From: Escherichia coli
GTDB lineage: Bacteria; Pseudomonadota; Gammaproteobacteria; Enterobacterales; Enterobacteriaceae
Assembly: GCF_041248615.1 (NCBI RefSeq)
Contig: NZ_CP158426.1
DNA: 64,000 nt
Strand: one strand, 5' to 3'
Part shown: positions 34,950 through 58,761 of the stretch, piece by piece
Numbering within the stretch: position 1 is the first letter of the stretch
How the letters are laid out: each line of letters begins with the position of its first letter
Program-made: the position numbers and the translations under genes
Notes under the pieces: model-generated
What the model saw: the letters and a program-made list of their open reading frames with translations, nothing else
Database searches by the model: none
What the model was told of the DNA's origin: nothing

Positions 34950-36266
34950 ATGGCCGTCAATCTTACTGAAACAGCCATCCGAGCATTGAAAGCAAAAAAG
35001 ACATCGTTCTATGTCTGGAGCAACAGCTCTCAACGTGGCACTGGACGACTTGGTGTCAAAGTTCAGCCTTCTGGCAGCAAGATTTTCTATTTCCGCTATT
35101 ACGTGGAAAAAGGGAAAAAAGAAAGATTCATTCAATTGGGTATATGGCCTGAGATGAAACTGGCCACAGCGAATGAACTGGCAAAAAAGTATGGTGCCTG
35201 GCTCATTGAAGGAAAGGCTCCCCAGGCAGAACTGGAACGACAACAGTTTGCAGAACAGCAGCGGATACAACTCCATCAATCACAGGGCTCATTTGAAGCA
35301 TTGATTCATGGTTATGTTAACAAAATGAAAATTGATAATAAGAGGACATGGCAGGATGTTCTGAAACGCCTTGAAAATGAATGCTATACAGTGATCCCCC
35401 GTGAAACTAAAGCTAAAGATGTGACTTCCGGACAGATTAAACATATCCTGGCCGGGATCATTCAGCGCGGTGCTGTGGTTCACTCTAACCGGATCCGTTC
35501 TTACCTGATGGCTGCATTTAACTATGGACTGAAAGCAGATAACGATCCGATGAACACAAGTGTAGGGATTACTTTTGGGCTGGAGGCAAATCCGGTGTCA
35601 GTGATACCGAAACAGTCATCTGCTGAAAAAGTCGGTGATACCTGGCTGACACTTGAAGAGTTGCGTTTTCTAATGGAACATTTTGCTGAAGCAACCAACG
35701 TTGGATTATTGATGCAACATTTGATCCGATTCTGTATCTATACCGGAGGGCAACGTCCTTTCGAAATGATCGCCAGTCAGTGGTGTGATGTTGATTTTCA
35801 ACAAAAAACGCTGCTGGTGACTGCTGATGTCTCTAAAAATAAACGAGAGCATTTGATACCGTTGACTGAATCAGCATTACAGGAATTATCCTGTGTGCAG
35901 GAGTTAACAAAAGAAAAATCCAGCCCTTACATTTTTCCACTTTCGACTAATGGTAAGCGTCCGGTTCGTACGGACAGTCTGGCTCGCGCTATCATGTATT
36001 TCCGGGCTTTTAATCCTGACTTTAAAATTTTTACAGCACGTGACTTACGTCGGACCTGTAAAACGTTAATGGGAGAAGCTGGGATCAGTAAGGAAATCCG
36101 CGATCGTATTCAAAATCATGCGTTGAACGATGTCAGTTCAAAACATTATGATCGATACGATTATTTGCCAGAAAAACGCAGAGCACTTGAGATCTGGGAG
36201 GACCGGGTTAATAACTATCAACAGCAAACAGGCAATAATGTTGTCAATCTGTTTGGCAGAAGGTGA
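34950..36266 (+). CDS. tyrosine site-specific integrase (P4-type)
   Basis: 438 aa; N-terminal arm-binding-like region (KVQPSGSKIFYFRYYVEKGKK); C-terminal catalytic-region motifs (HDLRRT..., ...HYDRYDY); good ribosome-binding site AAAAGAGG. Confidence 0.88.
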   Translation: MAVNLTETAIRALKAKKTSFYVWSNSSQRGTGRLGVKVQPSGSKIFYFRYYVEKGKKERFIQLGIWPEMKLATANELAKKYGAWLIEGKAPQAELERQQFAEQQRIQLHQSQGSFEALIHGYVNKMKIDNKRTWQDVLKRLENECYTVIPRETKAKDVTSGQIKHILAGIIQRGAVVHSNRIRSYLMAAFNYGLKADNDPMNTSVGITFGLEANPVSVIPKQSSAEKVGDTWLTLEELRFLMEHFAEATNVGLLMQHLIRFCIYTGGQRPFEMIASQWCDVDFQQKTLLVTADVSKNKREHLIPLTESALQELSCVQELTKEKSSPYIFPLSTNGKRPVRTDSLARAIMYFRAFNPDFKIFTARDLRRTCKTLMGEAGISKEIRDRIQNHALNDVSSKHYDRYDYLPEKRRALEIWEDRVNNYQQQTGNNVVNLFGRR

Positions 36267-36395
36267 GGGAGTTCCTGGTTGCTGTACGAATTGTGTACAA
36301 TTGATGGGTATTGTTGATGCACTTGGTTCTTGTATTGTTTACTATAATTATTGAGGTAAATTTTCGTGCCGGTATTACTCAGAGGGGATTCAAAA

Positions 36396-36992
36396 ATGGC
36401 TGTAATTCCAATGTCTTACTCCCCTGCTACTGTAGCTCGTCGTTTTTCGATACTGGATGGAGTAACTATTCAGGGCGTGCTTTACCAGATCATCTGGGAT
36501 CCAAAGACTCCGTTTGCTGCGGTAATCGAAGCTGCACCTTCTGTTATTGATGGTGATGTTCGCCATAAGGTTGTTGCCACTCTGGAGCTTCAGCGTCGTC
36601 CCCGGCTTGAAGGCGTGTTTGTCCAGAAATTCTGGGAAGAACAGGATGTTGCTCAGATTGAAGGGATTGTTGTCGATGGCGCTGTACGTGATGTTGGTCT
36701 TGCAACGTTTGTTTATGAAACGATAGTCACAAAAGCGGGCGTTGTACTATTAAGTGATAACGAGCAATATGAAGGAGGTAAAGCTCTCTGGCAGCATATT
36801 GCGCGTCGTTCAACGAATCTGAAGGTGTTTATTTTAGATACTGATTCCGCACGGTATTACCCGTTTGATGGCGAACGGATCAGTTATGACGGGAAAAGCA
36901 TCCCGGAATCAGAAATCTGGAGTGAACATCCTGAGCGAAACAGACACGCTGTCGTTCTTGTGGCTGAATCTGTTAATGGTAAAGCCGCATAA
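36396..36992 (+). CDS. hypothetical protein (possible GNAT-like fold, unverified)
   Basis: 198 aa from the ATG with AGAGGGGA ribosome-binding site (ORF track starts 10 codons earlier at GTG); segment IEGIVVDGAVRDVGLATFVYETIV loosely resembles GNAT motif A; no confident family assignment. Confidence 0.5.
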   Translation: MAVIPMSYSPATVARRFSILDGVTIQGVLYQIIWDPKTPFAAVIEAAPSVIDGDVRHKVVATLELQRRPRLEGVFVQKFWEEQDVAQIEGIVVDGAVRDVGLATFVYETIVTKAGVVLLSDNEQYEGGKALWQHIARRSTNLKVFILDTDSARYYPFDGERISYDGKSIPESEIWSEHPERNRHAVVLVAESVNGKAA

Positions 36993-37074
36993 TTTGCTGA
37001 GTGTCTCATTTTTTGAGATCTTGCTGGAAAGTCTCCTTTGGGGATAGCGAACTGCTATCCCCTTTCTCAGTGAG

Positions 37075-38679
37075 TTACTGTTCGACCAGACATTTTCCCC
37101 ATAAAGGTCGTATCGAGTATCTATCTTCGCTATATGGATTTATTTTATTTTTTTCCCTCTGTGCTATCAGCAACGTGTCGATCTCATCCTTAATAATGTG
37201 TTGAACTGCTTGACGGTAACGGTTAAGCGAAGTGTCACTGATATCTTGTGGAAGTTGTAGACTGCCATCTGCCTTGACAAGTTCATTCACACCATCTTTA
37301 ATTCTGCGTCCCTGACCATCAGGTATACCTTCATTCAGATCATAGCCTTTTAGTCCTGCAAGACGAATATTCACGTCAATCTTTTCTGTACGTATCTTTT
37401 TGTTACTTACCAACAGAATTTTATTGGCGTTATACCATTTTTCAAATATTTCCAGTTGTTTCATGATGTTTGTGAAGTTATTCAGTTCGCTCCTGAATTC
37501 AATAGATTTTCTAATTTTACGCTCTTTTGCATCAATGTTTATTCCTGGATAATTTATTTCCATTTTTAACGGTTCTGTGTATGCCTGTTGCAGGCAATCA
37601 GCAAGATTCATTGCTGCATCCTGCAGGGTATTGGTATAAATCAGTTTCAGAAGTTCATCACGCTGTATAGTGATTTGACAATAGTCTTTTTCCCATGCGG
37701 TGGTGTTTTCAATCGTGTCACTTTCATCGGAAATAATTGTTGTGAACTTCCAGGTGTAACGAATAAAATCATTTCCTTTAAAATATTGCACTAATTTATT
37801 TAACCATTCATATATTTCCAGAGCATAAAGTTTAACGTATCCATCATATATTATCTTTGTTGCATTTTTGTTGGCTAGCGAAAACATTTTGTCCACGAAT
37901 TCTGTACGCCCGATTGTTAGCAATTGTTTTCTAAGTTTACTCACATCGTTAGTATCTGGTTTCTCACAATTCCAGGGACTTTTGTATTCATTTTCAAAAG
38001 GAGAAAGCCATTCAGGAATCTCTGTTTCTGAGTGATAGCAGTTGTTAATAGCCAAACCAAGGGTTCTGGCAAGTATCGCTGATTCATCAATTTGATGGTA
38101 TCGGTTCAGTTGTTCCAGTAATTCTTTAGTACATGAGTGCGCAACAGAAAGATCCTGATGGCAATATCCTTGTCGAACCAGAGCGGGAAGTGGTGAGCAA
38201 TGAGCTTTACAATCTGTCAGAATATTGAACAAATCGTTTCTGACGAATTCTTCCATCTCAGGTGTTTTCCAGCCACCACTATTTTGGCCGACAAATTTTG
38301 CTGTTGGTTCCCTGTTCATATCTCCCCAGGTTTTCAGGCTGACGAGTCTGTTATCAAAACCATTGTATAAATGGCACATAACCTGAAAAGCAGCATACAG
38401 ATCTTTAGATAGTGGATTATCGGTCTCACTTATGGAGTAGTTCTCTCTGTTTTTCTCTAAAATACTTTGGAGTTTTGTGTTAGCGCGTAATGCCGAGAGA
38501 ATCCGATGTTGTTCATCAAACCAAGGACGATATTCTGGATCCAGATACAATCTGCGTGCTTTGAAAATGAGTAGAAGCAACTGTTCGGAAACAGCTTCAT
38601 GTATGTGGGGAAACGGCATGGAGGTGCCGGATAAAACACGATAGTACGGGTGGTTTGTTTTTACCTTTTTAGTTACCAT
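37075..38679 (-). CDS. hypothetical protein, 534 aa, no recognisable domain
   Basis: Long uninterrupted ORF in an AT-rich segment flanked by long AT-rich non-coding DNA; no Walker A motif; one Rx4H element (RQGYCH) is insufficient for a HEPN call. Confidence 0.6.
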   Translation of the reverse strand: MVTKKVKTNHPYYRVLSGTSMPFPHIHEAVSEQLLLLIFKARRLYLDPEYRPWFDEQHRILSALRANTKLQSILEKNRENYSISETDNPLSKDLYAAFQVMCHLYNGFDNRLVSLKTWGDMNREPTAKFVGQNSGGWKTPEMEEFVRNDLFNILTDCKAHCSPLPALVRQGYCHQDLSVAHSCTKELLEQLNRYHQIDESAILARTLGLAINNCYHSETEIPEWLSPFENEYKSPWNCEKPDTNDVSKLRKQLLTIGRTEFVDKMFSLANKNATKIIYDGYVKLYALEIYEWLNKLVQYFKGNDFIRYTWKFTTIISDESDTIENTTAWEKDYCQITIQRDELLKLIYTNTLQDAAMNLADCLQQAYTEPLKMEINYPGINIDAKERKIRKSIEFRSELNNFTNIMKQLEIFEKWYNANKILLVSNKKIRTEKIDVNIRLAGLKGYDLNEGIPDGQGRRIKDGVNELVKADGSLQLPQDISDTSLNRYRQAVQHIIKDEIDTLLIAQREKNKINPYSEDRYSIRPLWGKCLVEQ

Positions 38680-39458
38680 AATGTTAAATTCTTCCGTCTA
38701 TTGCATAGCTGTTTCCAGTAGAGAAACTTGATACAGTCCTTTGTCAGGACATTGATACAGAGTTAACAGCCTCTACGAAATGGGAATCAGTTATGCAGTG
38801 GCATTATACGATGCTGAATCTAATACGATATCCTTAGCGTTTATTCCTGATTTTTTTACGAGCATTCCCTTTTGTTGCATATTGCTCAGGACGCAAATGA
38901 TTTTACGGTTATAGCCCTCTACAGTCACGTCACTTTCATCTGAAAATATGTATCGTTTTCATTCAATTATTATCTTTTGTCTGCACTTTAGCTTTAGAAA
39001 GTTGGCAAAAATCAACTCCCTCTTACAAGTTCTATTATCGCCAGAAGATAATTTTGTGAACTTCGTCACGTTTTCAAACTAATGTTGTGGGGGCTTTTCT
39101 GGGGAGAATTTTTGGTCACTACCCCTCCTCTTGATATCATAGATTATAACAAGATTTTTTTTGTTTTTGTCTGCATAAAATAACCTACGAATATTGTGAT
39201 TTTGATTTTTATTTTGTATACCAAAAAGCATTGTTTAAGTTATTTTTATATTGTGACTTTCTTTGTTGTTATTGTGTTATTAGAAGTCAGTTAATTAAAT
39301 CATTTCTCGCAATTTGATTTCTTGGTTGTGCAAATGTATTGTTTTGCTCGTGAGTTGCTGGTGCTGTTCAACAGCATACCACTACAGATAGATGTAGTGA
39401 TTTGAGCAGCTCACATGCATATACAATCTGAAAATCATGAATATATAAGGAGAGCAAT

Positions 39459-39686
39459 ATGTGGAAGCCGTTAAGAGATGAGAACCGTTTATCAATTTTG
39501 AAGATCTATGGATACACCTGTGACAGACTGGTACGAGAAAAGGAACGCCAGAAAATTACGTCTATTTCTCGTTCACAAGCCTGGAAACTGGAACGTGAAG
39601 GAAAATTCCCGCCACGTAAAACTATTGGAAAGAAATCCTGTGGGTGGTTATTAAGTGATCTATTGTGGTGGATTAGTCAGTATTAA
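39459..39686 (+). CDS. AlpA-family phage/island transcriptional regulator
   Basis: 75 aa; pattern RLV...ISRSQAW.LEREGKFP...GKKSCGW fits the AlpA (prophage CP4-57 regulatory) fold; ribosome-binding site TAAGGAGAG. Confidence 0.75.
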   Translation: MWKPLRDENRLSILKIYGYTCDRLVREKERQKITSISRSQAWKLEREGKFPPRKTIGKKSCGWLLSDLLWWISQY

Positions 39687-39748
39687 CCTTATAGTATCAG
39701 AATAATATATATTTCTATATTTTAATTTTATAATTAAAAAGGAGTTTC

Positions 39749-40495
39749 ATGATGAAACGTGTCTCTTTCTCTCTTGCAGAAACATATGAAGCTGATGTAA
39801 TTAAAAAGTATCAGCATTTAAAAAAATGCTCATTTTCAGCAGCGATTAAAGAGTGTTTAAAGCTAGGGGCTCCTGTTTTAAACAGGATAAATGAAAATAT
39901 TGCTGCTATAACTGATATAGAGGATAAGCTACGTCAGTTTTTTAATGAGGAACCATTTGTGCAACGGACAAAGCCTGAAATAACAAAAGGAGAGTTTTTT
40001 CATAGCATTTATAAATCGCATATCAAATATGAATATGATGTTCTCGATAGAAAGATATTTCCTCATGAAAGCACCAGAAATGCTATGGGAGTTGCAGAGA
40101 AAAAGGGAATTAAAGAGAATGCGACCTTAATGCTGGAATATTATAAAGTTGAGAAGGCAATTTGTATTTACACGAACAGAAAAGTTTCCCATACCCTGAA
40201 TCGTGCAGGAGGGTTTTATAAAACCATTCTGATTAAAACCAGTGTTTTTGGGGATTATTTTTTTGACTTTTGCAATTCAGTTTGCCTGCCGATAGATGAG
40301 TTGATTGAGTATGGTACGAAAGAAACAGTGAGGCGACATCAGATTCGTAGTACAGGATTTTGTACTTTTCATATTCCGATTTTTTATATCAATAATAAGG
40401 CTGTAATAGTGCCTGTTCTGAGAACAGAGGAAGTTTCACAAAGTTCCAGAACAGGTGGAGATGTTATTATTATTAACCCATTTGAAGATGAATGA
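39749..40495 (+). CDS. hypothetical protein
   Basis: 248 aa, AT-rich codon usage, ribosome-binding site AAAAGGAG; no family recognised. Confidence 0.55.
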   Translation: MMKRVSFSLAETYEADVIKKYQHLKKCSFSAAIKECLKLGAPVLNRINENIAAITDIEDKLRQFFNEEPFVQRTKPEITKGEFFHSIYKSHIKYEYDVLDRKIFPHESTRNAMGVAEKKGIKENATLMLEYYKVEKAICIYTNRKVSHTLNRAGGFYKTILIKTSVFGDYFFDFCNSVCLPIDELIEYGTKETVRRHQIRSTGFCTFHIPIFYINNKAVIVPVLRTEEVSQSSRTGGDVIIINPFEDE

Positions 40496-40716
40496 TTATG
40501 GCCCGCGTAGATTTATTCATAACCCAGAAATCGTGGTGTAAATGATGAACAGAAACCGCTTTCTGAGGTTAAAGAGAGCAATCATTACCCGGGAGTGGCC
40601 AACTCTTTTATCGAGTACTTTTCCGATGTATCTGGAGAGCCTCCCTTAGAAAAGAGTAATGCGACTCAGGAAAAAACAGGTTCAATAATTAATTCATGAC
40701 ACCAGTTTGAGGCATT

Positions 40717-41277
40717 ATGGCGAGTTTTGCATACATAGACTCTGAAAAATGGTCAAAACTTAATCGCTTAAAATCCATGATTCAGAGATATTTTAAAGAA
40801 CCACTATTGCAGTTAACAGGCGAATTGGGTCGCCCGGATTATACTCTGGCAGACAGAAAACGGTTAGTTCGACTCCTGACGCAGGATATGCAAAGGGGTG
40901 ATATTCTGATTACTAAATCGTTAACTTGTTTTGGTAATACGCCGGAAAAAATACAGGAGGTTTTATCTTTAAGTATCAGACAAGGTATTAATATTTGCTT
41001 TTTTACGTCATCAGAGTTGCCGGATGGTGATGATATTCCTGTGGTACTCACCGGGATGATTTTACCTACAGATATTAGAGGAAAAATTCCCGACATCAGT
41101 ATCCGGAAAATTAAAAGAAAACCAGGAAGGAAAGAAGGGAGTATTCATAGTAAAAATATCAGACAGTTGAAATTGCAGGGGTTCAGTCAGTCACAAACAG
41201 CCAGAAAATTAAGCATCAGTTTATCCACTGTAAAAAGACACTGGGATAAAGGTATTGTTGATCTAACTGCAGAGTAA
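40717..41277 (+). CDS. hypothetical protein with C-terminal resolvase/invertase-type HTH
   Basis: 186 aa; C-terminus QGFSQSQTARKLSISLSTVKRHW resembles the HTH of serine recombinases; the N-terminal region lacks an obvious catalytic serine motif, so likely a regulator or degenerate recombinase. Confidence 0.5.
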   Translation: MASFAYIDSEKWSKLNRLKSMIQRYFKEPLLQLTGELGRPDYTLADRKRLVRLLTQDMQRGDILITKSLTCFGNTPEKIQEVLSLSIRQGINICFFTSSELPDGDDIPVVLTGMILPTDIRGKIPDISIRKIKRKPGRKEGSIHSKNIRQLKLQGFSQSQTARKLSISLSTVKRHWDKGIVDLTAE

Positions 41278-41473
41278 CATTTTATAGTCCTTGTAGCTAT
41301 TGGCAATGGAGTTATAAATACATGTGCGTTGGATAGGTAATATATATTATATCTGTGATGTATAGTATATGTGTAATGATGGATATGATGTACTAATAGA
41401 GCTAATGGTATTCTGATACCAAATAATTAGTTGTGTGTAGATCATAACTCTGTTTAATGTTTTAGAACGTTCT

Positions 41474-41558
41474 AATGTAACTGTGTAACATCATCCTGTT
41501 CTCTAATGTAACAATAGGCAGTAGCGTTTTTCTTAATTGACGCCCAGAGGGTTATATA
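41474..41558. repeat. intergenic repeats: direct repeat TCTAATGTAAC x2 and perfect palindrome CCCAGAGGG-TTATATAT-CCCTCTGGG
   Basis: Read directly in the 380-bp AT-rich gap upstream of the first YagK/YfjJ-like gene; coordinates approximate. Confidence 0.45.
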
Positions 41559-41658
41559 TCCCTCTGGGAACTACTGATACGAATATTAATATCTGCTTCT
41601 GTTGTGTATTGGGTAGGTTAACTATTAGCTTATCTCTGAAAGCAAAAGGAATATTAAC

Positions 41659-42273
41659 ATGATTACGATTGAAACTCTTTACGGTGAATGTCATGAGGCT
41701 CACGGGTTAAAAATAAGAAACCAGGTGAATAACCTCTTCCAGAAACATCCCAGAATAACGGCAATACGGGTGGATCTCCATTATCCTCCCGTGATTGACA
41801 ACGGGGATACCATTACCTGTTTTCCTAACCTGAGTCCCGGAGAGATATCTCGTTTCCGTAACTCGCTGAATGCGAAAATTAATGCAGATCAACACCGTAA
41901 AAAACAACAAGGCAAACGCACCTACGCAACGTCGGTTTGTATTATCTGGGCGAAAGAATATACGCAGTCCTTTAAATGTCATTATCACGTCTGCCTTTTT
42001 TTTAACAAAGACGCCTATTACCACCTGGGAGACTATGAGCGCTCTGACACCCTGAGAGGGTTAATTACCGGAGCCTGGTACAGTGCCTTAGGGTTAGAAC
42101 TGGAAGATCACCAGGGACTAGTTCATTTCCCTGCTAATGGACGTTACATCCTGGATATTAACGATCCTGATTTCCCTGAGCAATATCAGCGCTTATTGGC
42201 ACGTCTGGATTATCTGACGAAGCTCGACACTAAAGCATCAGGCCAGCGTAACTTTGGCTACAGCGGTTTTTGA
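41659..42273 (+). CDS. YagK/YfjJ-family protein (Inovirus Gp2-like domain)
   Basis: 204 aa; architecture and motifs (…HYHVCLFFNKDAYYHLG…) typical of the YagK/YfjJ family common in CP4-like islands; ribosome-binding site AAAAGGA. Confidence 0.55.
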   Translation: MITIETLYGECHEAHGLKIRNQVNNLFQKHPRITAIRVDLHYPPVIDNGDTITCFPNLSPGEISRFRNSLNAKINADQHRKKQQGKRTYATSVCIIWAKEYTQSFKCHYHVCLFFNKDAYYHLGDYERSDTLRGLITGAWYSALGLELEDHQGLVHFPANGRYILDINDPDFPEQYQRLLARLDYLTKLDTKASGQRNFGYSGF

Positions 42274-42300
42274 CCTATTGTAACTGTAAGGTGATTTATT

Positions 42301-42867
42301 ATGTATACAGAATCAAACGTTAAGCTTTCCTGTAACGCCCTCTGGCAAAAGTATGTCCTTGCAACTCTGTATCGGGCTGCAGCTACACATCCTAAAATTA
42401 AATTATTACAATTTAAATTAATACCTTGCCCAGGTATGAACAAGGCAATTCCCTCTCTGATGGCTGATTTTACTGGTGAACTGCATAGACTAATTTCTGA
42501 ATATTTGCAGTGCAAGCGACGTAAAGATAAATCTGTTGAGCCCGCCCCTTTATATTATCTCTGGAGTAGGGAAGCTGTGGCTAACGATACCACTCCTTAT
42601 CTTATGGTACTGCTACTTAATAACGATGTCTGGTGTAAGAGTCGTGAGGTGGTGGCTCTCAGAAATCTGATTGAGCAGGCGTGGGGAAAAGTATTGGGTG
42701 AAGATAACTCCATTACACATCTGGTTGTGTATCCTGAAGTGCTGTCGTTGGTATTTGATGCAGCTAACACATACAACGCTGAGCCTGGTGTACTGGAACA
42801 GACGGCCCAGGCTTACATTGAATCGCATGGTGCCATTGAACGTCATCTTGGGTGTAGTGACTTTTAA
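42301..42867 (+). CDS. YagK/YfjJ-like paralogue (divergent)
   Basis: 188 aa; similar length and motif spacing to the preceding gene (…PYLMVLLLNNDVWCKS…); followed by hairpin AGGGCCTTTCGCTGAGAGGCCCT. Confidence 0.45.
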   Translation: MYTESNVKLSCNALWQKYVLATLYRAAATHPKIKLLQFKLIPCPGMNKAIPSLMADFTGELHRLISEYLQCKRRKDKSVEPAPLYYLWSREAVANDTTPYLMVLLLNNDVWCKSREVVALRNLIEQAWGKVLGEDNSITHLVVYPEVLSLVFDAANTYNAEPGVLEQTAQAYIESHGAIERHLGCSDF

Positions 42868-42974
42868 CGACGTCAGGTGATGCATAAGGGCCTTTCGCTG
42901 AGAGGCCCTGTTTACACAATTAAATAAGTCGAGCCCGACCAGCAATTTTGACGTTGACGGCAGGATTATTGAGG

Positions 42975-43062
42975 GGCAATCAATGTGTTCTTCGGCAGCG
43001 ATTACGGTAGTGAACGGACCTGCTGTCTGAATGGTATCGATCCGCAAGCGTATCTGCGCCAT
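42975..43062 (+). pseudogene. IS66-family transposase C-terminal remnant, truncated by IS2
   Basis: Translation FGSDYGSERTCCLNGIDPQAYLRH matches the conserved …CKLNGIDPxAYL… region of IS66-family transposases; reading frame is cut at the IS2 end at 43063. Confidence 0.4.
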
Positions 43063-44151
43063 TGGATTTGCCCCTATATTTCCAGACACCTGTTATCACT
43101 TAACCCATTACTGGCCCGCTGCCGTAGATATTCCCGTGGCGAGCGATAACCCAGTGCACTATGCGGATGCCATTCGTTATAATGCTCGAACGCCTCTGCA
43201 AGGTTCTTTGCTGCCGTTAACCCGTCTGGTTTGGGCATGATACTGATGTAATCACGCTTTATCGTTTTCACGAAGCTCTCTGCTATGCCGTTACTCTCCG
43301 GACTCCGCACCGCCGTGTTCTTCGGTTCAAGTCCCAGCATCCGGGCGAACTGGCGTGTTTCATTAGCCCGGTAGCATGAACCATTATCCGTCAGCCACTC
43401 CACTGGAGATGTCGGAAGCTCGCTGCCGAAGCGGCGTTCCACCGCTCCCAGCATGACGTCCTGTACTGTTTCACTGTCGAAGCCGCCCGTAGTGACCGCC
43501 CAGTGCAGTGCCTCACGGTCACAGCAGTCCAGCGCGAACGTGACCCCCAGTTTTTCTCCGTTATCACAGCGGAACTCGAACCCGTCAGAGCACCATCGTT
43601 GATTGCTTTCTTTCACGGCCACTTTGCCAGTATGTGCCCGTTTCGATGGCGGTACAGCGGTTTTTCGCTCAAGCAACAGCGCATTCTGGCGCATGATCCG
43701 GTAAACACGTTTGGCATTGATAGCAGGCATACCATCAAGTTCGGCCTGTCTGCGAAGCAGCGCCCATACCCGACGATAACCATACGTGGGCAGCTCTCCG
43801 ATAACATGGTGTATACGGAGAAGCACATCCGTATCATCTGAGTGACGGCTGCGGCGACCATCTTTCCAGTCATCGGTTCGTCTGAGAATGACGTGCAACT
43901 GCGCACGCGACACCCGGAGACAACGGCTGACTAAGCTTACTCCCCATCCCCGGGCAACAAGGGAGACCGTCATTCCCGGTTCAAAGCTCTGCTGAACAAT
44001 AGCGATCTTTTCCTGTGTAGTACGCCGTCTGCGTTTCTCCGGCCCTAAGACATCAATCATCTGTTCTCCAATGACTAGTCTAGAAACTAGTATTAAGACT
44101 ATCACTTATTTAAGTGATATTGATTGTCTGGAGATTCAGGGGGCCAGTCTA
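43063..44151 (-). mobile_element. IS2 copy with internal deletion of about 240 bp (1089 bp versus 1331 bp canonical)
   Basis: Both IS2 termini recognised (TGGATTTGCCCCTATATTTCCAGACA at 43063; GGGGGCCAGTCTA ending 44151); the 5 bp flanking the two ends differ (GCCAT versus TATAT), so no target-site duplication. Confidence 0.8.
43074..44105 (-). CDS. IS2 transposase, in-frame InsC-InsD fusion created by the internal deletion
   Basis: N-terminal 37 aa equal InsC ([36 protein letters not shown]); the remainder equals InsD ([21 protein letters not shown]…DNRCLEI). Confidence 0.8.
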
Positions 44152-44485
44152 TATATCAATTAATCATTAGTTTAAAAGCTTGTTCAACTGCATACATCAT
44201 TAGCGTTTAAGCCAGTGAACAGGAAGTTTACTGGCTTAATTACAGTAATATAGTGTATCGCTATGCTCACTGAGTCTTAGATCTCCACCGTCGGTCTAAT
44301 ATTCGCACTCCTGCTAACAACCGGTAATCAAATCGTCCTCCGGTATTGAAAGTTAATACACAAATCAGGATGATGGAGGCTCATACTGGTACAGCGCGAC
44401 CACTTATGCAGGCGTCTCTGTCAGGTTTGTTGCCCGGATCACCCGCATCAGGGACAGGGCTGTTCAGTTATCCGCAGGAGAAAAT

Positions 44486-45496
44486 ATGTCACTCAAGGCT
44501 ATCGCCGCCGAACTCGGGATCTCTGTCACCACAGTCAGCCGGGCGCTTGGCGGATTTTCGGACGTTTCCGCTTCGACCCGTGCACGTGTAGAAGCGGAAG
44601 CTCGGCGTCGTGGTTATCGCCCGAATACCCTGGCAAGACGTCTCAAAACCGGTAAAACCGATGCGGTCGGCCTGGTCTTCCCTGAACATGCTGTACTGTT
44701 CAGCAGTAGTGTGTTTGTGGATATGGTCAGTTGTATCAGCCGGGAACTGGCCCGCCATGATATTGACTTACTGCTGATAGCCGATGATGAACGGGCTGAC
44801 AGCCACAGCTATATGCGTCTGGTCGAAAGCCGCCGGGTTGATGCCCTTATCGTGGCGCACACGATGGATAATGACCCGCGTCTTACACACCTGCAGGAGG
44901 CCGGTATTCCGTTTCTGGCACTCGGTCAGGTGCCGTCCGGTCTTCCCTGTGCCTGGTTTGACTTTGATAACCATGCAGGAACCTGGCAGGCCACACAGCA
45001 CCTGATTGCCCTGGGCCATCAGCGAATTGCCCTGCTGAGTGAGGACAACTCCCGTGCCTATGTCACTGCACGACGTCAGGGATGGCGCGATGCCCTGAGT
45101 GAACATGGTCTGCCTGAGACCTGGCTACGCCGGGTCTCTCCCACCCGACGCTCAGGTTTCCAGGCAGTGACTGAGTTAATGTCACTTCCGCTTCCCCCGA
45201 CGGCCATTATTACCGACAGTGACCTGATCGGTGATGGCGCGGCCATGTCGCTGCAGTTATCCGGTCATCTGTCCGGAGAGGATGCCGTCTCTCTTGTGGT
45301 TTATGATGGTCTGCCGCAGGACAGTATTATTGAACAGGATGTGGCTGCAGTTCTTCAGTCAACACGACATCGCGTCGGTCGTCAGATTGCCGACATGATA
45401 CGCCAGCTGGTCACGAATGTTTCACCTGAAATGCTACAAGTACTCTGGCAGCCGGAATTTCATCCTGGCAAGACAACGCTTGCTCCCTCCGCCTGA
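44486..45496 (+). CDS. rafR: LacI-family repressor of the raffinose operon (RafR-like)
   Basis: 336 aa with N-terminal HTH MSLKAIAAELGISVTTVSRAL; directly upstream of alpha-galactosidase, permease and invertase genes. Confidence 0.75.
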   Translation: MSLKAIAAELGISVTTVSRALGGFSDVSASTRARVEAEARRRGYRPNTLARRLKTGKTDAVGLVFPEHAVLFSSSVFVDMVSCISRELARHDIDLLLIADDERADSHSYMRLVESRRVDALIVAHTMDNDPRLTHLQEAGIPFLALGQVPSGLPCAWFDFDNHAGTWQATQHLIALGHQRIALLSEDNSRAYVTARRQGWRDALSEHGLPETWLRRVSPTRRSGFQAVTELMSLPLPPTAIITDSDLIGDGAAMSLQLSGHLSGEDAVSLVVYDGLPQDSIIEQDVAAVLQSTRHRVGRQIADMIRQLVTNVSPEMLQVLWQPEFHPGKTTLAPSA

Positions 45497-45515
45497 TTTT
45501 TAATCCCGCTCACAA

Positions 45516-45554
45516 ATTCGAATCGTTTCGGTTGCTATCCGAAACGATTCGGAT
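45516..45554. promoter_or_regulatory. near-perfect 16-bp inverted repeat (candidate RafR operator pair) upstream of rafA
   Basis: ATTCGAATCGTTTCGG - 7 bp - CCGAAACGATTCGGAT, located 35-75 bp before the rafA start. Confidence 0.5.
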
Positions 45555-45589
45555 CAACAGTAAGGCATACCCGAAAACGGAGATGTCTT

Positions 45590-47716
45590 ATGGAACCGAT
45601 GTACCGCAGGCTGACCAGTCCCCACTCAGACCTGATTATTAAAACCCACCCGTATGCAGAGATTGTCTGGTGGGGATCCACCCTGAAACACTTTTCACCG
45701 GATGACTGTATCAGCCTGGAAAGGCCGGTTGCGAATGGTCGTCTGGATACCGACACCCCACTGACGCTGATGGCCGAAAACGGCGCGGGACTTTTTGGCT
45801 CGCCGGGGCTGGAGGGACACCGCAACGGGCTGGATGCGTCCCCTGTGTTCCGTACCATCAGCGTGGTACAGGCCGGAGAATCACTCACCCTGACCAGTGA
45901 GGATGCAGTGGCGGGTCTGCGCATGGTCAGTGAACTGGTGCTGACATCGTCCGGTGTGCTGAAGATGCGTCATGCCCTGACGAACCTCCGTGAAGGGGAC
46001 TGGCAGGTGAACCGCTTCGCCATCACGCTCCCTGTGGCTGAAAGGGCAGAGGAAGTCATGGCCTTCCACGGACGCTGGACTCGTGAGTTTCAGCCGCACA
46101 GGGTCCGTCTCACACATGACGGTTTTGTGCTGGAGAACCGCCGGGGCCGCACGTCCCATGAGCATTTTCCGGCACTGATTGCCGGTGCCCCCGGTTTCTC
46201 AGAACAGCAGGGCGAGGTGTGGGCCGTACATCTGGGCTGGAGTGGCAACCATCGCATGAAATGTGAGGTCAAAACTGACGGACGGCGTTACCTCCAGGCG
46301 GAAGCACTGTGGATGCCCGGAGAAAAAGCCCTGAAGAAGGATGAGACCGTGTACACGCCGTGGCTGTACGCCAGCTATTCCCCGGAGGGGCTCAATGGTA
46401 TGAGTCAGCAGTACCACCGTTTTCTGCGCGATGAAATCATCCGTTTTCCTGAGCAGAAACCCCGTCCGGTGCACCTCAATACCTGGGAAGGTATTTATTT
46501 TGACCACGACCCGAACTACATCATGCAGATGGCCGGACGTGCGGCAGCGCTTGGCGTTGAACGTTTCATTATCGACGACGGCTGGTTTAAGGGACGCAAT
46601 GATGACCATGCGGCTCTGGGCGACTGGTATCTGGATGAACAGAAGTATCCGGACGGACTGATGCCGGTGATTAACCATGTGAAATCACTCGGCATGGAGT
46701 TCGGTATCTGGGTGGAACCGGAAATGATTAACCCGGACTCTGACCTCTTTCGCCGCCATCCTGACTGGGTACTGTCAATGCCGGGGTACACACAACCAAC
46801 CGGGAGACATCAGTATGTTCTCAACCTGAACATTCCTGAGGCCTTTGCTTACATTTATGAACGCTGTTTATGGCTGCTGGGCGAACACCCAGTTGACTAT
46901 GTGAAATGGGACATGAACCGCGAGCTGGTCCAGGCCGGGCATGAAGGTCGGGCGGCGGCGGACGCGCAGACCCGTCAGTTTTACCGGCTGCTGGATCTCC
47001 TGCGCGAACGTTTTCCCCGTGTTGAGTTTGAGTCCTGCGCTTCCGGCGGTGGACGTATCGACTTTGAGGTTCTGACCCGCACGCACCGCTTCTGGGCTTC
47101 TGACAACAATGACGCCCTGGAGCGCTGCACCATACAGCGTGGCATGAGTTACTTTTTCCCGCCGGAGGTTATGGGGGCACACATCGGTCATCATCGCTGC
47201 CATGCCACCTTCCGGCAGCACAGCATTGCCTTTCGCGGTCTGACGGCCCTGTTCGGTCATATGGGACTGGAGCTGGATCCGGTAACGGCCGGAGAAGAGG
47301 AATCCGCCGGTTACCGCCGCTATGCCTCGCTCTACAAAGAATGGCGGCAGCTTATCCACACGGGCACCCTATGGCGGGTGGATATGCCGGATGCGGCGAC
47401 ACAGGTGCAGGGGGTGGTCAGCCCGGATCAGTCGCAGGCGCTCTTCCTGGTGAGCCAGCTTGCCATGCCGGATCACACCCTGCCGGGTGCTCTACGTTTT
47501 CCGGGGCTGGCACCACAGGCCCGTTACCGGCTTCGTGTTGTTGACCATCCGGATATTCAGCTGGTCGGTGAAGGCGGGCATACCATGCGCAGGCTGCCCG
47601 GCTGGATGAACCAGACCTCCGACATCAGTGGGGAATGGCTGGCGCAGGCCGGTATTCAGCTTCCCGTACTGGATCCGGAAAGCGCCATGCTGATTGCCCT
47701 TGAACGTTTGGCATAA
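45590..47716 (+). CDS. rafA: alpha-galactosidase (GH36), RafA-like
   Basis: 708 aa; size and context match raffinose-plasmid RafA. Confidence 0.85.
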   Translation: MEPMYRRLTSPHSDLIIKTHPYAEIVWWGSTLKHFSPDDCISLERPVANGRLDTDTPLTLMAENGAGLFGSPGLEGHRNGLDASPVFRTISVVQAGESLTLTSEDAVAGLRMVSELVLTSSGVLKMRHALTNLREGDWQVNRFAITLPVAERAEEVMAFHGRWTREFQPHRVRLTHDGFVLENRRGRTSHEHFPALIAGAPGFSEQQGEVWAVHLGWSGNHRMKCEVKTDGRRYLQAEALWMPGEKALKKDETVYTPWLYASYSPEGLNGMSQQYHRFLRDEIIRFPEQKPRPVHLNTWEGIYFDHDPNYIMQMAGRAAALGVERFIIDDGWFKGRNDDHAALGDWYLDEQKYPDGLMPVINHVKSLGMEFGIWVEPEMINPDSDLFRRHPDWVLSMPGYTQPTGRHQYVLNLNIPEAFAYIYERCLWLLGEHPVDYVKWDMNRELVQAGHEGRAAADAQTRQFYRLLDLLRERFPRVEFESCASGGGRIDFEVLTRTHRFWASDNNDALERCTIQRGMSYFFPPEVMGAHIGHHRCHATFRQHSIAFRGLTALFGHMGLELDPVTAGEEESAGYRRYASLYKEWRQLIHTGTLWRVDMPDAATQVQGVVSPDQSQALFLVSQLAMPDHTLPGALRFPGLAPQARYRLRVVDHPDIQLVGEGGHTMRRLPGWMNQTSDISGEWLAQAGIQLPVLDPESAMLIALERLA

Positions 47717-47770
47717 AAGGACCGGAGCCGGTCACGGCTCCCTGCACTCAGTCCCGTGAGGATAACAATA

Positions 47771-49048
47771 ATGAATACTGTCAGTACTCATAAAAACCCC
47801 GATTTCTGGATATTTGGTCTGTTCTTTTTTCTCTACTTTTTCATCATGGCAACCTGTTTCCCGTTTCTGCCCGTCTGGCTGTCAGACATTGTGGGGCTGA
47901 GTAAAACGGATACCGGGATTGTTTTTTCATGCCTCTCCCTGTTTGCCATCAGCTTCCAGCCGCTGCTGGGGGTCATCTCAGACCGTCTTGGCCTGAAAAA
48001 ACACCTGATGTGGATCATCAGCCTGCTGCTGGTCCTGTTTGCACCGTTCTTTCTGTACGTTTTTGCGCCGCTGCTGCGGTTCAACATCTGGGCCGGAGCA
48101 CTGAGCGGCGGGATTTTTATCGGCTTCGTTTTTTCTGCGGGAGCCGGTGCCATCGAAGCCTATATTGAACGTGTCAGCCGCAGCAGCGGATTTGAATACG
48201 GTAAGGCCCGGATGTTCGGCTGTCTGGGCTGGGCGCTGTGTGCCACCACGGCAGGGCTGCTTTTCAACGTGGATCCGTCCCTGGTATTCTGGATGGGGTC
48301 CGGCTGCGCATTGCTGCTGGTCCTTCTGGTGGCGCTGGCGCGTCCCGGAACCAGTCAGACAGCGATGGTCATGAATGCGCTGGGTGCCAACTCGCCCGTG
48401 ATTTCCGCCGGAATGGTGTTCAGTCTGTTTCGTATGCGTCAGATGTGGATGTTCGTGCTTTACATGATTGGGGTGGCCTGCGTCTATGACGTGTTTGACC
48501 AGCAGTTTGCCACGTTCTTCCGTGCATTTTTTGACACGCCGCAGGCGGGGATCCGGGCATTTGGTTTTGCCACCACGGCTGGCGAGATTTGCAATGCCAT
48601 CATCATGTTCTGCTCCCCCTGGATAATCAACCGCATTGGTGCCAAAAACACACTGCTTGTCGCGGGTCTGATTATGACCATCCGCATCACAGGGTCGGCC
48701 TTTGCCACCACGGCTACTGAAGTGGTGATCCTGAAAATGCTGCATGCCCTTGAAGTCCCATTCCTGCTGGTTGGTGCGTTCAAGTATATCACCGGCGTGT
48801 TTGATACCCGGCTGTCGGCCACCATTTATCTGATTGGCTTTCAGTTCTCCAAACAACTGGCGGCGATATTCCTCTCAACCTTTGCAGGTCACCTGTATGA
48901 CCGCATGGGGTTCCAGAACACCTATCTGGTTCTGGGCGGTATTGTCCTTGCGGTCACCGTGTTATCGGCTTTCACCCTGAGCAGTACCCGTAAAACGGCT
49001 GCCCCGTCAGCAGAAACCGCTACAGCACAGACGGAGGTTCGCTTATGA
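47771..49048 (+). CDS. rafB: raffinose permease (LacY-family oligosaccharide:H+ symporter), RafB-like
   Basis: Start at MNTVSTHKNPDFWIFGLFFFLYFF with GAGGA ribosome-binding site; LacY-like throughout. Confidence 0.85.
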   Translation: MNTVSTHKNPDFWIFGLFFFLYFFIMATCFPFLPVWLSDIVGLSKTDTGIVFSCLSLFAISFQPLLGVISDRLGLKKHLMWIISLLLVLFAPFFLYVFAPLLRFNIWAGALSGGIFIGFVFSAGAGAIEAYIERVSRSSGFEYGKARMFGCLGWALCATTAGLLFNVDPSLVFWMGSGCALLLVLLVALARPGTSQTAMVMNALGANSPVISAGMVFSLFRMRQMWMFVLYMIGVACVYDVFDQQFATFFRAFFDTPQAGIRAFGFATTAGEICNAIIMFCSPWIINRIGAKNTLLVAGLIMTIRITGSAFATTATEVVILKMLHALEVPFLLVGAFKYITGVFDTRLSATIYLIGFQFSKQLAAIFLSTFAGHLYDRMGFQNTYLVLGGIVLAVTVLSAFTLSSTRKTAAPSAETATAQTEVRL

Positions 49049-50475
49049 AACAGCGTCTTGCCTCTGCACAGGTTGCACTTGATACACTCCGCGCCCGTCG
49101 TGGTGATACCTGGTACCCGGTTTTTCATCTGGCTCCACCTGCCGGATGGATGAATGATCCGAACGGGCTTATTTATTTCAGCGGTCGCTATCACGCATTC
49201 TTTCAGCACCATCCGGCAAGTGAACATCAGGGGCCGATGCACTGGGGACATGCCACCAGTCCGGACATGCTGCACTGGCAGCATGAGCCGGTTGCGCTGG
49301 CACCCGGTGATGAATATGACCGGGATGGCTGTTTTTCCGGCAGCGCAGTGGACGACAACGGCGTGCTGTCGCTTATCTACACCGGTCATCTCTGTCTGGA
49401 GGATCGGGGGGATGACAGCATCATCCGCGAAGTCCAGTGTCTGGCAACCAGCCGTGACGGCATTCACTTTGAGAAACAGGGCTGCGTGCTGACGCCACCG
49501 GAAGGCATCATGCATTTCCGTGACCCGAAGGTCTGGCGGGAAGGGGGATACTGGTGGATGGTTATCGGCGCGCGGGATACCTCTGACACCGGTCAGGTGC
49601 TGCTGTATCGCGGCACATCCCTGCGGGACTGGCGCCAGGAACGGGTTCTAGCGCAGTCGGCAGCCGGAGAAAGCTATATGTGGGAATGTCCGGACTTTTT
49701 CCGCTGTGGCGACCATCACTGGCTGATGTTCTCCCCGCAGGGGATGACGCCCGGCGGATACCGGTTCCGCAACCGCTTTCAGAGCGGAGTTTTACCGGGT
49801 CACTGGCAGCCGGGGGCCGCCTTTGCCCTGAGCGGGGCATTTGAAGAACTGGATCACGGTCATGATTTTTATGCCCCGCAGTCCCTGGTCGCGGAGGACG
49901 GACGGCGCATCATCATGGCCTGGATGAATATGTGGGACTCCCCGATGCCTACAAAGCGTGAGGCCTGGGCCGGATGTCTGACCCTGCCGAGGGAACTTTT
50001 TGAACGCCATGGTCGTCTGTGTCAGCGTCCGGTTCGCGAAGCCGAATCCCTTCGCGGGACGTGCCAGCCGTTACACCCTGTAAGGCTCAGTGGCACGCAG
50101 TTGCTGGCTGAGGACGCACAGGCCGTGGAACTGGTGCTGACGTGGCATACCCTCGACAGTCAGGCAGAGCATTACGGCATCCACCTGGGAGACGGGCTCC
50201 GGCTGTATGTGGATAACCAGGCAGGACGGCTGGTGCTTTGGCGTCACTACCCGGATGAGGGGCTGGACGGTTACCGCAGTATCGCGCTGCCTGGCGCAGA
50301 ATATCTGACGCTACGGGTTTTCCTGGACCGTTCATCGGTGGAAGTGTTCGTTAACGATGGCGATGCCACCCTGTCCAGCCGTATTTACCCGCAGCCCGGA
50401 ACCCGCCGGTTGTCGCTATATGCAGCTCACGGCGAGGCTGTGCTGACGGACGGCTCACTGTGGACGCTGGCCTGA
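49045..50475 (+). CDS. rafD: GH32 invertase / sucrose hydrolase, RafD-like
   Basis: 476 aa; GH32 signature WMNDPNG near the N-terminus; start overlaps rafB stop by 4 bp. Confidence 0.85.
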   Translation: MKQRLASAQVALDTLRARRGDTWYPVFHLAPPAGWMNDPNGLIYFSGRYHAFFQHHPASEHQGPMHWGHATSPDMLHWQHEPVALAPGDEYDRDGCFSGSAVDDNGVLSLIYTGHLCLEDRGDDSIIREVQCLATSRDGIHFEKQGCVLTPPEGIMHFRDPKVWREGGYWWMVIGARDTSDTGQVLLYRGTSLRDWRQERVLAQSAAGESYMWECPDFFRCGDHHWLMFSPQGMTPGGYRFRNRFQSGVLPGHWQPGAAFALSGAFEELDHGHDFYAPQSLVAEDGRRIIMAWMNMWDSPMPTKREAWAGCLTLPRELFERHGRLCQRPVREAESLRGTCQPLHPVRLSGTQLLAEDAQAVELVLTWHTLDSQAEHYGIHLGDGLRLYVDNQAGRLVLWRHYPDEGLDGYRSIALPGAEYLTLRVFLDRSSVEVFVNDGDATLSSRIYPQPGTRRLSLYAAHGEAVLTDGSLWTLA

Positions 50476-50538
50476 AATAATTCCACTGCCGTCGGTGACG
50501 GCAGTACTTTCGGTTCACCCGTAATGAAGGAAAGCACA

Positions 50539-51054
50539 ATGGGATTACTGGGCAGGATTAAACAACTGATAAGTGAAAATGAGAAACCGGCGGAAGTCAC
50601 CCGCGTGATGGCACCGCTGTCCGGTGAAATTGTCCCTCTGGACACGGTTCCGGATGCTGTGTTTGCCGGGAAAATAGTGGGGGATGGTATTGCTATCCGT
50701 CCTTCCGGCGGCGATACCTTGATGGCTCCTGTCAGCGGCACTATCGGTAAAATACTGGAGACAAACCACGCGTTTTCCATCCGCACCGACAGTGGCACTG
50801 AACTGTTCGTGCACTTCGGTATTAACACAGTTGACCTCAGGGGAGAGGGTTTCCGGCGTATTGCCCAGGAAGGCCAGCTGATCAGCACCGGTGACCCCGT
50901 CATCGGGTTTGACCTTGCGTTACTTCAGCAGAAAGCACAGTCCACGCTGACACCGGTGATTGTGGCGGACTCTGACCGTGTCCAGGAGATAACCCTGTTC
51001 TCCGGCCCGGTCATCGCCGGAGAAACACCGGTTTTTGATATCAGCAGCCAGTAA
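50539..51054 (+). CDS. PTS EIIA(Glc)-like protein (Crr paralogue)
   Basis: 171 aa from MGLLGRIK (ribosome-binding site AAGGA 7 nt upstream); contains the EIIA-Glc core …KIVGDGIAIRPSG…GKILETNHAFSI…LFVHFGINTVDLRGEGF… including the two active-site His. Confidence 0.75.
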   Translation: MGLLGRIKQLISENEKPAEVTRVMAPLSGEIVPLDTVPDAVFAGKIVGDGIAIRPSGGDTLMAPVSGTIGKILETNHAFSIRTDSGTELFVHFGINTVDLRGEGFRRIAQEGQLISTGDPVIGFDLALLQQKAQSTLTPVIVADSDRVQEITLFSGPVIAGETPVFDISSQ

Positions 51055-51324
51055 GCGCCATGAGTGACAATATCGCCAGCGGGCAGCTGGTATCAGGGAA
51101 AGCCGCACATCTGGCCTGGTGCGGGCTGGTAGCCCTGCATCTGGCCCGCCGGGATGGCCGGATTGCGTCAAAAATCCAGGAAAACCTGTTTCTAAACCGC
51201 TGGCGGAGCACAGCACTGAAACAGCACCGTTTTCCCCGCACATATCAGAGCCCTGCAGAGTGAAAGCGGGGCGAAAGATATCCGCAGCAGGCTGGAGTAT
51301 CTGTGGCAGGCCTGCTCTGGTGAT

Positions 51325-51636
51325 GTGTCGGTACAGACTGACCTGTTCCGCCTGACATTCGCCCTGGAAACCATCAGGGAGCAGGGCTGGTGCTGGCGGA
51401 TACTGAGCGACCGGAAATGGGAGGGGCGTAATGTCGTGGTTCCGAACGGGGATGCCGGCAGCTTTTATCTTTCCCGCTCACGTCTTGAGGCGGCATTTGA
51501 TTATCAGGGGAGGTTGCTGCATCCCCTGACCGGCGATGTGTCTGCCCTCGCTGCCCTGCTCCGGAATGCGGGTTGGTATCCAATTCCAGCCGGAACCACG
51601 GATATGGCGATGTTTGAGCTGTCTGTCATCCGCTGA
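51325..51636 (+). CDS. hypothetical small protein (uncertain; possibly part of a decayed gene)
   Basis: 103-aa ORF with GTG start in a GC-rich stretch where all three plus frames carry 60-100-codon ORFs (51060-51263, 51119-51355, 51325-51636). Confidence 0.25.
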   Translation: MSVQTDLFRLTFALETIREQGWCWRILSDRKWEGRNVVVPNGDAGSFYLSRSRLEAAFDYQGRLLHPLTGDVSALAALLRNAGWYPIPAGTTDMAMFELSVIR

Positions 51637-51665
51637 ATATGACTGATGAAAATCATGGAGTATGA

Positions 51666-52592
51666 ATGAGTACAGTAAAAGTATGGGGTCTCGGTGATGC
51701 CGTGGTGGATTTATTACCGGAGAAGCCGGGCACGCTGTTGCAGTGCCCTGGTGGTGCGCCTGCCAATGTTGCCGTGGGCGTGGCCCGACTGGGGGGCCTG
51801 AGCGGGTTTGTCGGGTGTGTGGGGGATGACCCTTTCGGGCGTTTTATGCGCAAAACCCTGGCTGATGAGGGTGTGGACACGGCGTATATGCATACCGACC
51901 CTCTGTACCGGACTTCCACAGTGGTGGTGTCGCTGGTGCCGGGTGGTGAACGAACCTTCACATTTATGGTGCGCCCTTCGGCAGACCTTTTCCTTACCCC
52001 TGATGATTTACCGCCCTTTCGTGCCGGTGAATGGCTGCATACCTGCTCCAATGCCCTGAGTGCAGAGCCCTGCCGCAGCGCCACGTTTCAGGCCATGGAG
52101 AACATCCGGCAGGCTGGCGGCAGGGTCAGCTTTGACCCCAACATCCGGACTGACCTGTGGCAGAGCACATCGCAACTGCGTGAGTGTCTGCACCGGGCGC
52201 TCATGCTGGCGGATGTGGCAAAGGTATCGGAAGAGGAACTGTTCTTTATCAGCGGTGAACAGGATGTCCGGAAGGGAACCGATGTTCTGGCATCACATTA
52301 TCCCCTGGCACTGCTGCTGGTAACCCAAGGAAAGGATGGCGTGATGGCTCGCTGGCAGGGAAAAAACCTGTACTTCCCGGCAACACCGGTGGTGAGTGTG
52401 GACACGACCGGTGCCGGTGACGCCTTCGTGGCAGGTCTGCTGGCAGCGCTGGCGGCAGAGGGGATGCCCTCCGGTGAGCAGGCACTCGCATCCGTCATCG
52501 AACAGGCCCAGCGCTGTGGTGCGCTTGCCACGACAGCAAAAGGTGCCATGACAGCGTTACCCCGTCGCCAGGATTTACTGAAACACCCCTGA
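51666..52592 (+). CDS. scrK: fructokinase (ribokinase/pfkB family; ScrK/CscK-like)
   Basis: 308 aa; VLGDAVVDLL N-terminus and DTTGAGDAF ATP-binding motif. Confidence 0.85.
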   Translation: MSTVKVWGLGDAVVDLLPEKPGTLLQCPGGAPANVAVGVARLGGLSGFVGCVGDDPFGRFMRKTLADEGVDTAYMHTDPLYRTSTVVVSLVPGGERTFTFMVRPSADLFLTPDDLPPFRAGEWLHTCSNALSAEPCRSATFQAMENIRQAGGRVSFDPNIRTDLWQSTSQLRECLHRALMLADVAKVSEEELFFISGEQDVRKGTDVLASHYPLALLLVTQGKDGVMARWQGKNLYFPATPVVSVDTTGAGDAFVAGLLAALAAEGMPSGEQALASVIEQAQRCGALATTAKGAMTALPRRQDLLKHP

Positions 52593-52640
52593 CCGTTTCC
52601 TGCCCGTAACCGTTGTGCACGTCATTTTTGTTGCGGGTGA

Positions 52641-54188
<1,548 letters not shown>

Positions 54189-54193
54189 ACACT

Positions 54194-54219
54194 AACGCTC
54201 CCGGTGTACCGGGAGCGTT
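54194..54219 (+). terminator. hairpin terminator after the porin gene
   Basis: AACGCTCCCGGT-GTAC-CGGGAGCGTT perfect stem directly after the stop codon. Confidence 0.6.
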
Positions 54220-55217: not shown

Positions 55218-55271
55218 TGAGCCGCCCCGGGAATCCTGGAGACTAAACTCCCTGAGAAAGAGGTAAACAGA

Positions 55272-56012: not shown

Positions 56013-58761
<2,749 letters not shown>

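Follow-up and report, generated by a model that had tools for sequence, protein, structure and literature searches.

Copies of insertion sequences provide portable homology for RecA-dependent rearrangement, as in the integration of F through IS2 or IS3 that gives rise to Hfr strains. The transposase of canonical IS2 (IS3 family, IS2 group; 1331 bp in the K-12 copy, IS2A) has a helix-turn-helix (HTH) at residues 30-51 and a coiled coil at residues 73-100; the coiled coil is needed for oligomerisation, binding and transposition, and point mutations in the HTH or in the coiled coil abolish binding or transposition (PMC3219604). In an engineered IS2 with fused frames, the A7G mutant, OrfAB is made from a single ORF without ribosomal frameshifting, and this full-length protein of 409 aa is active (Lewis et al., Mob DNA 2011, PMC3219604). 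Also familiar are non-autonomous IS derivatives, internally deleted and MITE-like, whose ends are intact while the transposase gene is damaged.

The element described here, termed IS2-delta, lies in an Escherichia coli contig (NZ_CP158426.1), within the 64,000-nucleotide stretch that was analysed and that we call the window, and it resembles each of these systems in part. With canonical IS2 it shares the inverted repeats, the DDE core of InsD and ~96% nucleotide identity, but 242 bp are missing from it, insC no longer exists as a separate gene, the A6G window is gone and a single fused ORF is left; nor is it flanked by a 5-bp target duplication. Like the engineered A7G protein, its product would be read from one ORF without frameshifting; unlike that protein, the natural fusion lacks residues ~38-118, which include helix 3 of the HTH and the 73-100 coiled coil (PMC3219604). 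It has the intact ends and damaged gene of the non-autonomous derivatives, without their signs of amplification or transposition: one copy is the rule, and no inspected copy is bordered by a duplication. In its surroundings it resembles Hfr-type IS recombination, since the breakpoints lie exactly at the ends of the IS, a target duplication is absent, different IS2 bodies are found at one and the same junction, and the flanking arms are of different ancestry; the differences are that IS2-delta is a defective copy and that the units joined are modules of a chromosomal island, not whole replicons. As an IS with an internal deletion that sits at a recombination junction, IS2-delta belongs to a class already known; it is widespread and has an annotation in RefSeq, and it reveals no new mechanism and no new kind of element. 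What it does is explain the local architecture of the island. In several hundred E. coli genomes, and in one Salmonella contig, the raf (raffinose-utilisation) block is bordered by the same defective copy, which is useful in practice for following how the raf module has spread and which shows cleanly, in nature, an IS serving as a recombination handle.

Table 1. Coordinates of IS2-delta and its surroundings in the window, and the arrangements (contexts) in which the deleted copy or its junctions are found; a slash marks a junction.
Feature	Position	Strand	Details
IS2 deletion derivative (IS2-delta)	43063..44151	-	1089 bp; IRL at the 44151 end, IRR at the 43063 end
IRR (right inverted repeat of IS2), intact	43063..43103	-	one substitution relative to K-12, at position 27
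IRL (left inverted repeat of IS2), intact	44110..44151	-	aligned end to end with IS2A
Fused insC-insD ORF, 328 aa	43074..44060	-	InsC ATG at 44060; RefSeq WP_001354443.1, 'IS3 family transposase'
Deletion junction, single remaining copy of the 14-bp direct repeat CCCTTGTTGCCCGG	43950..43963	-	BLAST pieces overlap by exactly 14 bases
5 bp flanking IRR, GCCAT	43058..43062	.	same junction in 168 genomes
5 bp flanking IRL, TATAT	44152..44156	.	no duplicate of GCCAT; same junction in 233 genomes
Degenerate remnant, probably of an IS66-family transposase C-terminus	42868..43062	+	coding match 42979-43062; cut at GCCAT
Left arm	34950..42867	+	integrase, low-GC core, two YagK/YfjJ (Gp2-like) genes
Right arm, always found with IS2-delta	44157..58769	+	shared with C-type L013 over 43063-58769 at 99.8% identity
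Context A (window)			backbone, IS66 remnant, GCCAT / deleted IS2 / TATAT, raf
Context B			left side of A / deleted IS2 / AGTTT..., second YagK module, then efa1/lifA-like toxin gene
Context C			different backbone, galactan operon, ISL3 remnant, ATGAA / deleted IS2 / raf
Context D (L015)			long IS66 remnant / full-length K-12-like IS2 / raf
Context E			A-like backbone, long IS66 remnant, IS5, ycdT-pgaABCD-phoH, GTTGG / deleted IS2 / raf
Context F			GCCAT / deleted IS2, IRL end cut by IS26 / IS26 region
Context H (L023)			...CTTTA / deleted IS2 / raf
Context L009			GCCAT / non-deleted, truncated IS2 / other right side

A reading made from the sequence alone had taken this region for an IS2 with both ends intact and about 240 bp missing internally. 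Alignment to IS2A agrees on each point: both inverted-repeat ends match through the final base, and the 40 differences in 1089 aligned bases are accompanied by one internal gap, of 242 columns, with no gap-free full-length match, so that the loss is measured at 242 bp. IRR starts at 43063 (TGGATTTGCCCC...) and IRL ends at 44151 (...GGGGCCAGTCTA), and the terminal imperfect inverted repeats of IS2 are present at both (IRL TAGACTGG..., IRR ...CAAATCCA). The interval first assigned to the element, 42975-44151, is right at its upper end; its start takes in the adjoining IS66 remnant, IS2 proper being 43063-44151. At IRL position 29 stands an A (44123) that is common only to the raf-linked copies and L015. 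The nearest full-length relative found is a plasmid copy on p13C1065T-1 (L008), which differs from IS2-delta at 18 positions. The idea of a second IS2 copy in the 64-kb window was dropped, sequence search finding none.

In L008 the interval lost from IS2-delta is bracketed by CCCTTGTTGCCCGG and CCCTTATTGCCCGG, and both copies of the 14-bp repeat are present there and in K-12. The deletion most likely arose by replication slippage, or by short-homology recombination, between these direct repeats; it removed the 3' two-thirds of insC together with the frameshift site, and the in-frame joining of insC codons 1-37 to insD would be accidental. With the A6G slippery site (IS2 position 409) inside the deletion, separate insC and insD are gone and one fused ORF is left. 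The sequence-only reading had described this as a fusion at the level of DNA, not the product of the programmed -1 frameshift, that joins the first 37 codons of InsC to InsD; that is how it stands, the deletion having taken out A6G and set InsD in frame with InsC, with the fusion point ...MTVSLVAR/GWGVSLV... falling after InsC residues 1-37. The 343-codon length given for the ORF is that of its longest form (43074-44105, minus strand), read from an upstream GTG at 44105; the likely product is the 328-aa protein that begins at the InsC ATG, as in RefSeq. Relative to a reconstructed 409-aa OrfAB, whose numbering reproduces the published positions of W237, D240 and E342, this product is OrfAB minus 81 residues, ~38-118, limits that are ambiguous by two residues since both sides carry L(V/I)AR, encoded by the repeat.

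The catalytic core of the protein is kept. Pfam matches comprise rve (E=5.5e-19), rve_3 (E=2.2e-18), HTH_21 and the first half only of HTH_Tnp_1; the WCSD, TDNGS and NGIAES motifs of the DDE core are kept, with the equivalents of D240, D306 and E342 intact; and the ORF is unbroken in all copies examined (A, B and C) despite 3-14 SNPs. Together with the intact inverted repeats, these properties are what would be expected if the fused ORF encoded a functional, frameshift-independent short transposase or regulator, the element having moved by transposition either alone or aided by full-length IS2, which is present in most E. coli and could act in trans. A chimeric HTH is even conceivable, in that the deletion joins equivalent spots of two HTH-like segments (SLVAR/QHGV and ALIAR/GWGV). 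We nevertheless consider such an active element very improbable. Helix 3 of the HTH and the whole coiled coil are gone, and substitutions in these parts abolish function (PMC3219604); none of the eight contexts inspected (A, B, C, D, E, F, H and L009) has a target duplication; nearly all copies are tied to a single neighbour, the raf block; and 4 of the 7 coding differences between A-type and B-type copies change the amino acid, a ratio in which we see no sign of purifying selection on the fused ORF. Because it has neither helix 3 nor the coiled coil, the fused protein should not be able to act on IS2 ends, and the literature on point and deletion mutants implies that it is probably inactive and unable to bind them.

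The absence of a target duplication had already been remarked on in the earlier reading, and the 5-bp flanks, GCCAT and TATAT, are indeed unlike. The check itself works, because full-length L008 shows a perfect 5-bp duplication, TCAGA, on both sides. The present position of IS2-delta would, then, not be the outcome of simple transposition. On its IRR side the element abuts, as that reading also held, what is probably a short C-terminal remnant of an IS66-family transposase: IRR adjoins 43062, and in L010, L011 and L043 the remnant extends past the GCCAT point. The translation of 42979-43062 (...FFGSDYGSERTCCLNGIDPQAYLRH) matches Pfam DDE_Tnp_IS66_C with E=1.8e-4 and 22 bits, and the longer allele of L010 with 25 bits, both under the cut-off of 30 bits; longer alleles in other genomes carry the RefSeq label 'IS66 family transposase' pseudogene. 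Some 85-195 bp of the IS66 element are left in the window, where tnpA, tnpB, the DDE domain of tnpC and the terminal repeats are absent, and a search for the parent recovered no full IS66 element at this locus in any genome inspected. Upstream of the remnant lies a YagK/YfjJ gene with its terminator hairpin. Islands of this family have in common, as a conserved landmark, a short IS66 remnant behind the Gp2/YagK genes, seen also in L016 (O157:H7 NE 1169-1), L010 (Rb-3) and L006/L007; the cargo beyond it varies by strain, being a type I Zorya system, a two-partner-secretion hemolysin locus, an efa1/lifA-like toxin gene, or raf.

The distribution of the deleted copy was followed with a 40-mer across the deletion junction, which cannot seed on full-length IS2. 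It detected the junction in at least 257 places, distributed over at least 249 of the 5426 complete E. coli genomes and always chromosomal, 257 being a lower bound because megablast with a 40-mer needs an exact word of 28 bases; it also matched two records filed as plasmids. These figures correspond to one deleted copy per genome as a rule; some genomes have two or three, and EPSSH018 has one of B-type and one of E-type. The whole 1.9-kb neighbourhood seen in the window recurs in 150 genomes. One of the two plasmid-filed records is L005 (CP101360.1, Salmonella enterica 'plasmid' pIndS102_1), a linear record of 17 kb that ends inside IS2-delta and whose IS2-raf sequence is 100% identical to that of the window over the 4.3 kb compared, which suggests either that the sequence recently passed between genera or that the contig is misassigned.

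Searches for the individual junctions in the same 5426 genomes placed GCCAT/IRR in 168, the ISL3 remnant/IRR junction in 60, phoH/IRR in 51 and the left junction of the D-type, with the full-length IS2 of L015, in 4; on the other side, IRL/TATAT-raf occurs in 233 and IRL/AGTTT in 11. These counts do not sum (168 + 60 + 51 left junctions against 257 places), and some junctions carry a non-deleted IS2. The IRL/raf junction is constant, whereas IRR adjoins at least five different partners: the IS66 remnant, the ISL3 remnant, phoH, and the flanks in L023 and L015. GCCAT/IRR, for its part, occurs with other right arms as well. The same deleted copy, varying by 0-11 SNPs, is found with the window's left flank next to other right arms, and with its right arm next to at least four other left flanks. 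This mixing of flank pairs across genomes bears out the suggestion that the copy marks a rearrangement site, having mediated an adjacent deletion or a recombination. A literature search on this raf island or the IS2 junction returned no relevant description.

Two of the arrangements deserve description in themselves. In L043 (NZ_CP125889.1, 6053-15981) and 51 genomes, the IS66 remnant and IS2-delta are separated by ~10 kb containing IS5, ycdT, pgaABCD and phoH; almost all 51 E-type genomes have the phoH flank twice, so these islands appear to have captured a second PGA biofilm operon. L011 (NZ_CP173479.1, 3990-4010) and L012 (NZ_CP091044.1, 3990-4010) have the raf block without any IS2, raf starting at most 2 bases from its usual abutment with IRL (TATCAATT... 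compared with TATATCAATT...); the two may carry the footprint of an excision, or show where raf originally began. In L011 raf is joined to the complete IS66 remnant. We had entertained L011 as an ancestral empty site and L015 as the primary insertion with a decayed duplication, and rejected this on inspection of the E-type sequence: there ...AATAGTACT continues natively as CCTCTGG..., and the left flank of L015 is therefore no duplicate of TATAT.

The two arms of the window have separate histories. The sequence-only reading had placed a breakpoint between an AT-rich island core and the raf module, and this is where composition and divergence both change: GC content is 33-47% in the core and 54-61% in the raf block, and the divergence of the two arms is discordant. 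Over its first 4 kb the raf arm shows 99.8-100% identity among all contexts, whereas the identity of the left arm to the window is 99.5% in the E-type, 99.0% in L023, 98.3-98.5% in B, L009 and L010, and 95.7% in L011 and L015. Shared sequence stops exactly at the termini of the IS: against the C-type the limit is 43063, from which 15.7 kb are shared, and against the B-type it is 44151, the left arm plus IS2-delta being 98.7% identical to L006 over 35936-44151. The raf block was probably not inherited along with the integrase/low-GC backbone, having been joined to that backbone at a shared IS2 copy. The right arm comprises genes for the raf regulator, alpha-galactosidase, permease, invertase, a crr-like protein, a DUF2913 protein, a kinase and a porin, an IS1414 remnant, and an IS3-family element that a group II intron interrupts; the terminus of this element (...TTGACCACTTCA, at 58769) is the limit of the arm. 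The possibility that 43063-58769 is a composite transposon was rejected, there being no duplication around the segment (GCCAT and GTGGG in the window, ATGAA and TCTTA in the C-type).

Comparison of the window with the E-type bears most directly on how the junction was formed. The two are identical over 41604-42868, differ at 50 columns within the 195 bp of the IS66 remnant, two indels included, and beyond it show 0 differences in IS2-delta and 3 in 8.8 kb of raf. The window's allele of the remnant is also that of B, L009, L010 and L023; the E-type's allele is found in L011 and L015. Because the remnant allele differs, the window is not a shortened E or D arrangement. From its alignments, the remnant stretch in the window reads as a recombination patch for which IS2-delta would have supplied the right-hand homology, the exchange having ended at or inside the IS2 copy. 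In addition, diverged and non-deleted IS2 bodies occupy identical junctions, that of L009 lying at GCCAT/IRR and that of L015 at IRL/TATAT, which implies exchange between IS2 copies or repeat insertion at the same base. Within IS2-delta itself the window differs from the C-type copy at 3 positions and from the B-type copy at 11, none of the latter in the first 275 bp (P ~0.04 under a uniform spread), and this pattern of SNPs weakly suggests a crossover inside the element. Its SNPs had at first looked like the mosaic of a B-left/C-right crossover, a candidate that was rejected when it was weakened by polarising with full-length copies and by the existence of E-type copies identical to that of the window.

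The nested endpoints on the IRR side, in the E, D and A types, resemble those of IS-promoted adjacent deletions, and count against exchange as the explanation; nor was a resident IS2 that could have acted as a landing pad found for the phoH or the L023 junction. On a deletion model, IS2 would have inserted at the raf boundary, and a transposase-driven intramolecular event from IRR would then have deleted DNA as far as GCCAT, removing one of the two copies of the duplicated target. The geometry suits this: the IRL side is fixed and, within a single series of backbones, the endpoints on the IRR side are nested, with ~10.3 kb (IS5, ycdT, pgaABCD, phoH) between remnant and IRR in the E-type, IRR exactly at the end of the remnant in the D-type, and the window 118 bp deeper; and in IS2 only IRR serves as the donor end (PMC3219604). 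We hold such a deletion to be unlikely all the same. The window's remnant allele, as described above, is not that of E or D, and GCCAT/IRR is common to the B-type and L009, where the right arm is a different one and the left arm has diverged by ~1.6%. The intermediate or duplicate junction that the model predicts, IRL/GCCATATACTG... (IRL/GCCAT...), was found by junction search in 0 genomes. To our knowledge, IS3-family elements of the copy-out/paste-in kind are not classically tied to adjacent deletions.

Recombination through IS2 homology thus appears better supported, on the sequence comparisons, than a simple adjacent deletion promoted by IS2. IS2-delta would be a defective relic with a passive role, offering ~1.1 kb of shared homology through which modules of the island could be joined or swapped by homologous recombination. 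In the window it would join the integrase/low-GC/YagK backbone, with its cut IS66 remnant, to a nearly invariant raf block of 14.6 kb, which would always bring this IS2 copy along at its left edge. The explanation that we favour as a whole, and think likely, is accordingly worded: IS2-delta is a non-autonomous deletion derivative of IS2, most likely deleted by slippage or short-homology recombination, probably inactive in its product, and used as a block of homology for the exchange of modules. Two further proposals, alternatives to one another, are improbable even when taken together. In one, the ~15.7-kb unit formed by IS2-delta, raf and the IS3-family element may act as an IS-bounded cassette, repeatedly exchanged between diverged backbones and even placed beside the duplicated pga-phoH; were that true, the defective IS2 would be kept as a homology handle. 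In the other, the frameshift-independent 328-aa OrfAB minus 38-118 may be a trans-dominant modulator of resident IS2.

Several other features of the island can be recorded. Its tyrosine integrase gene (34950-36266) directly follows nfeF, and the integration site is no obvious tRNA gene, since a scan of the 64 kb with ARAGORN gives neither tRNA nor tmRNA genes. The two YagK/YfjJ (inovirus Gp2-like) genes lie in tandem at 41659-42867 and encode 204 and 188 aa, the second having a much weaker Pfam match (E=6.6e-10 against 4e-55). Within the raf block, ~655 bp at 52122-52776 are missing from strain NT1N25 (L001), and the PfkB-type sugar kinase gene (51666-52592), intact in the window, is a truncated pseudogene in that strain. 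The IS256-family (IS1414-like) transposase remnant at 54425-55204, just after the raf porin gene, is without its N-terminus and covers positions 145-377 of the Pfam Transposase_mut profile. The IS3-family element that follows (55200-58769) is split by a group II intron with an RT/maturase ORF at 56669-58192 (Pfam RVT_1 and GIIM), and REP-like repeats come directly after its terminus.
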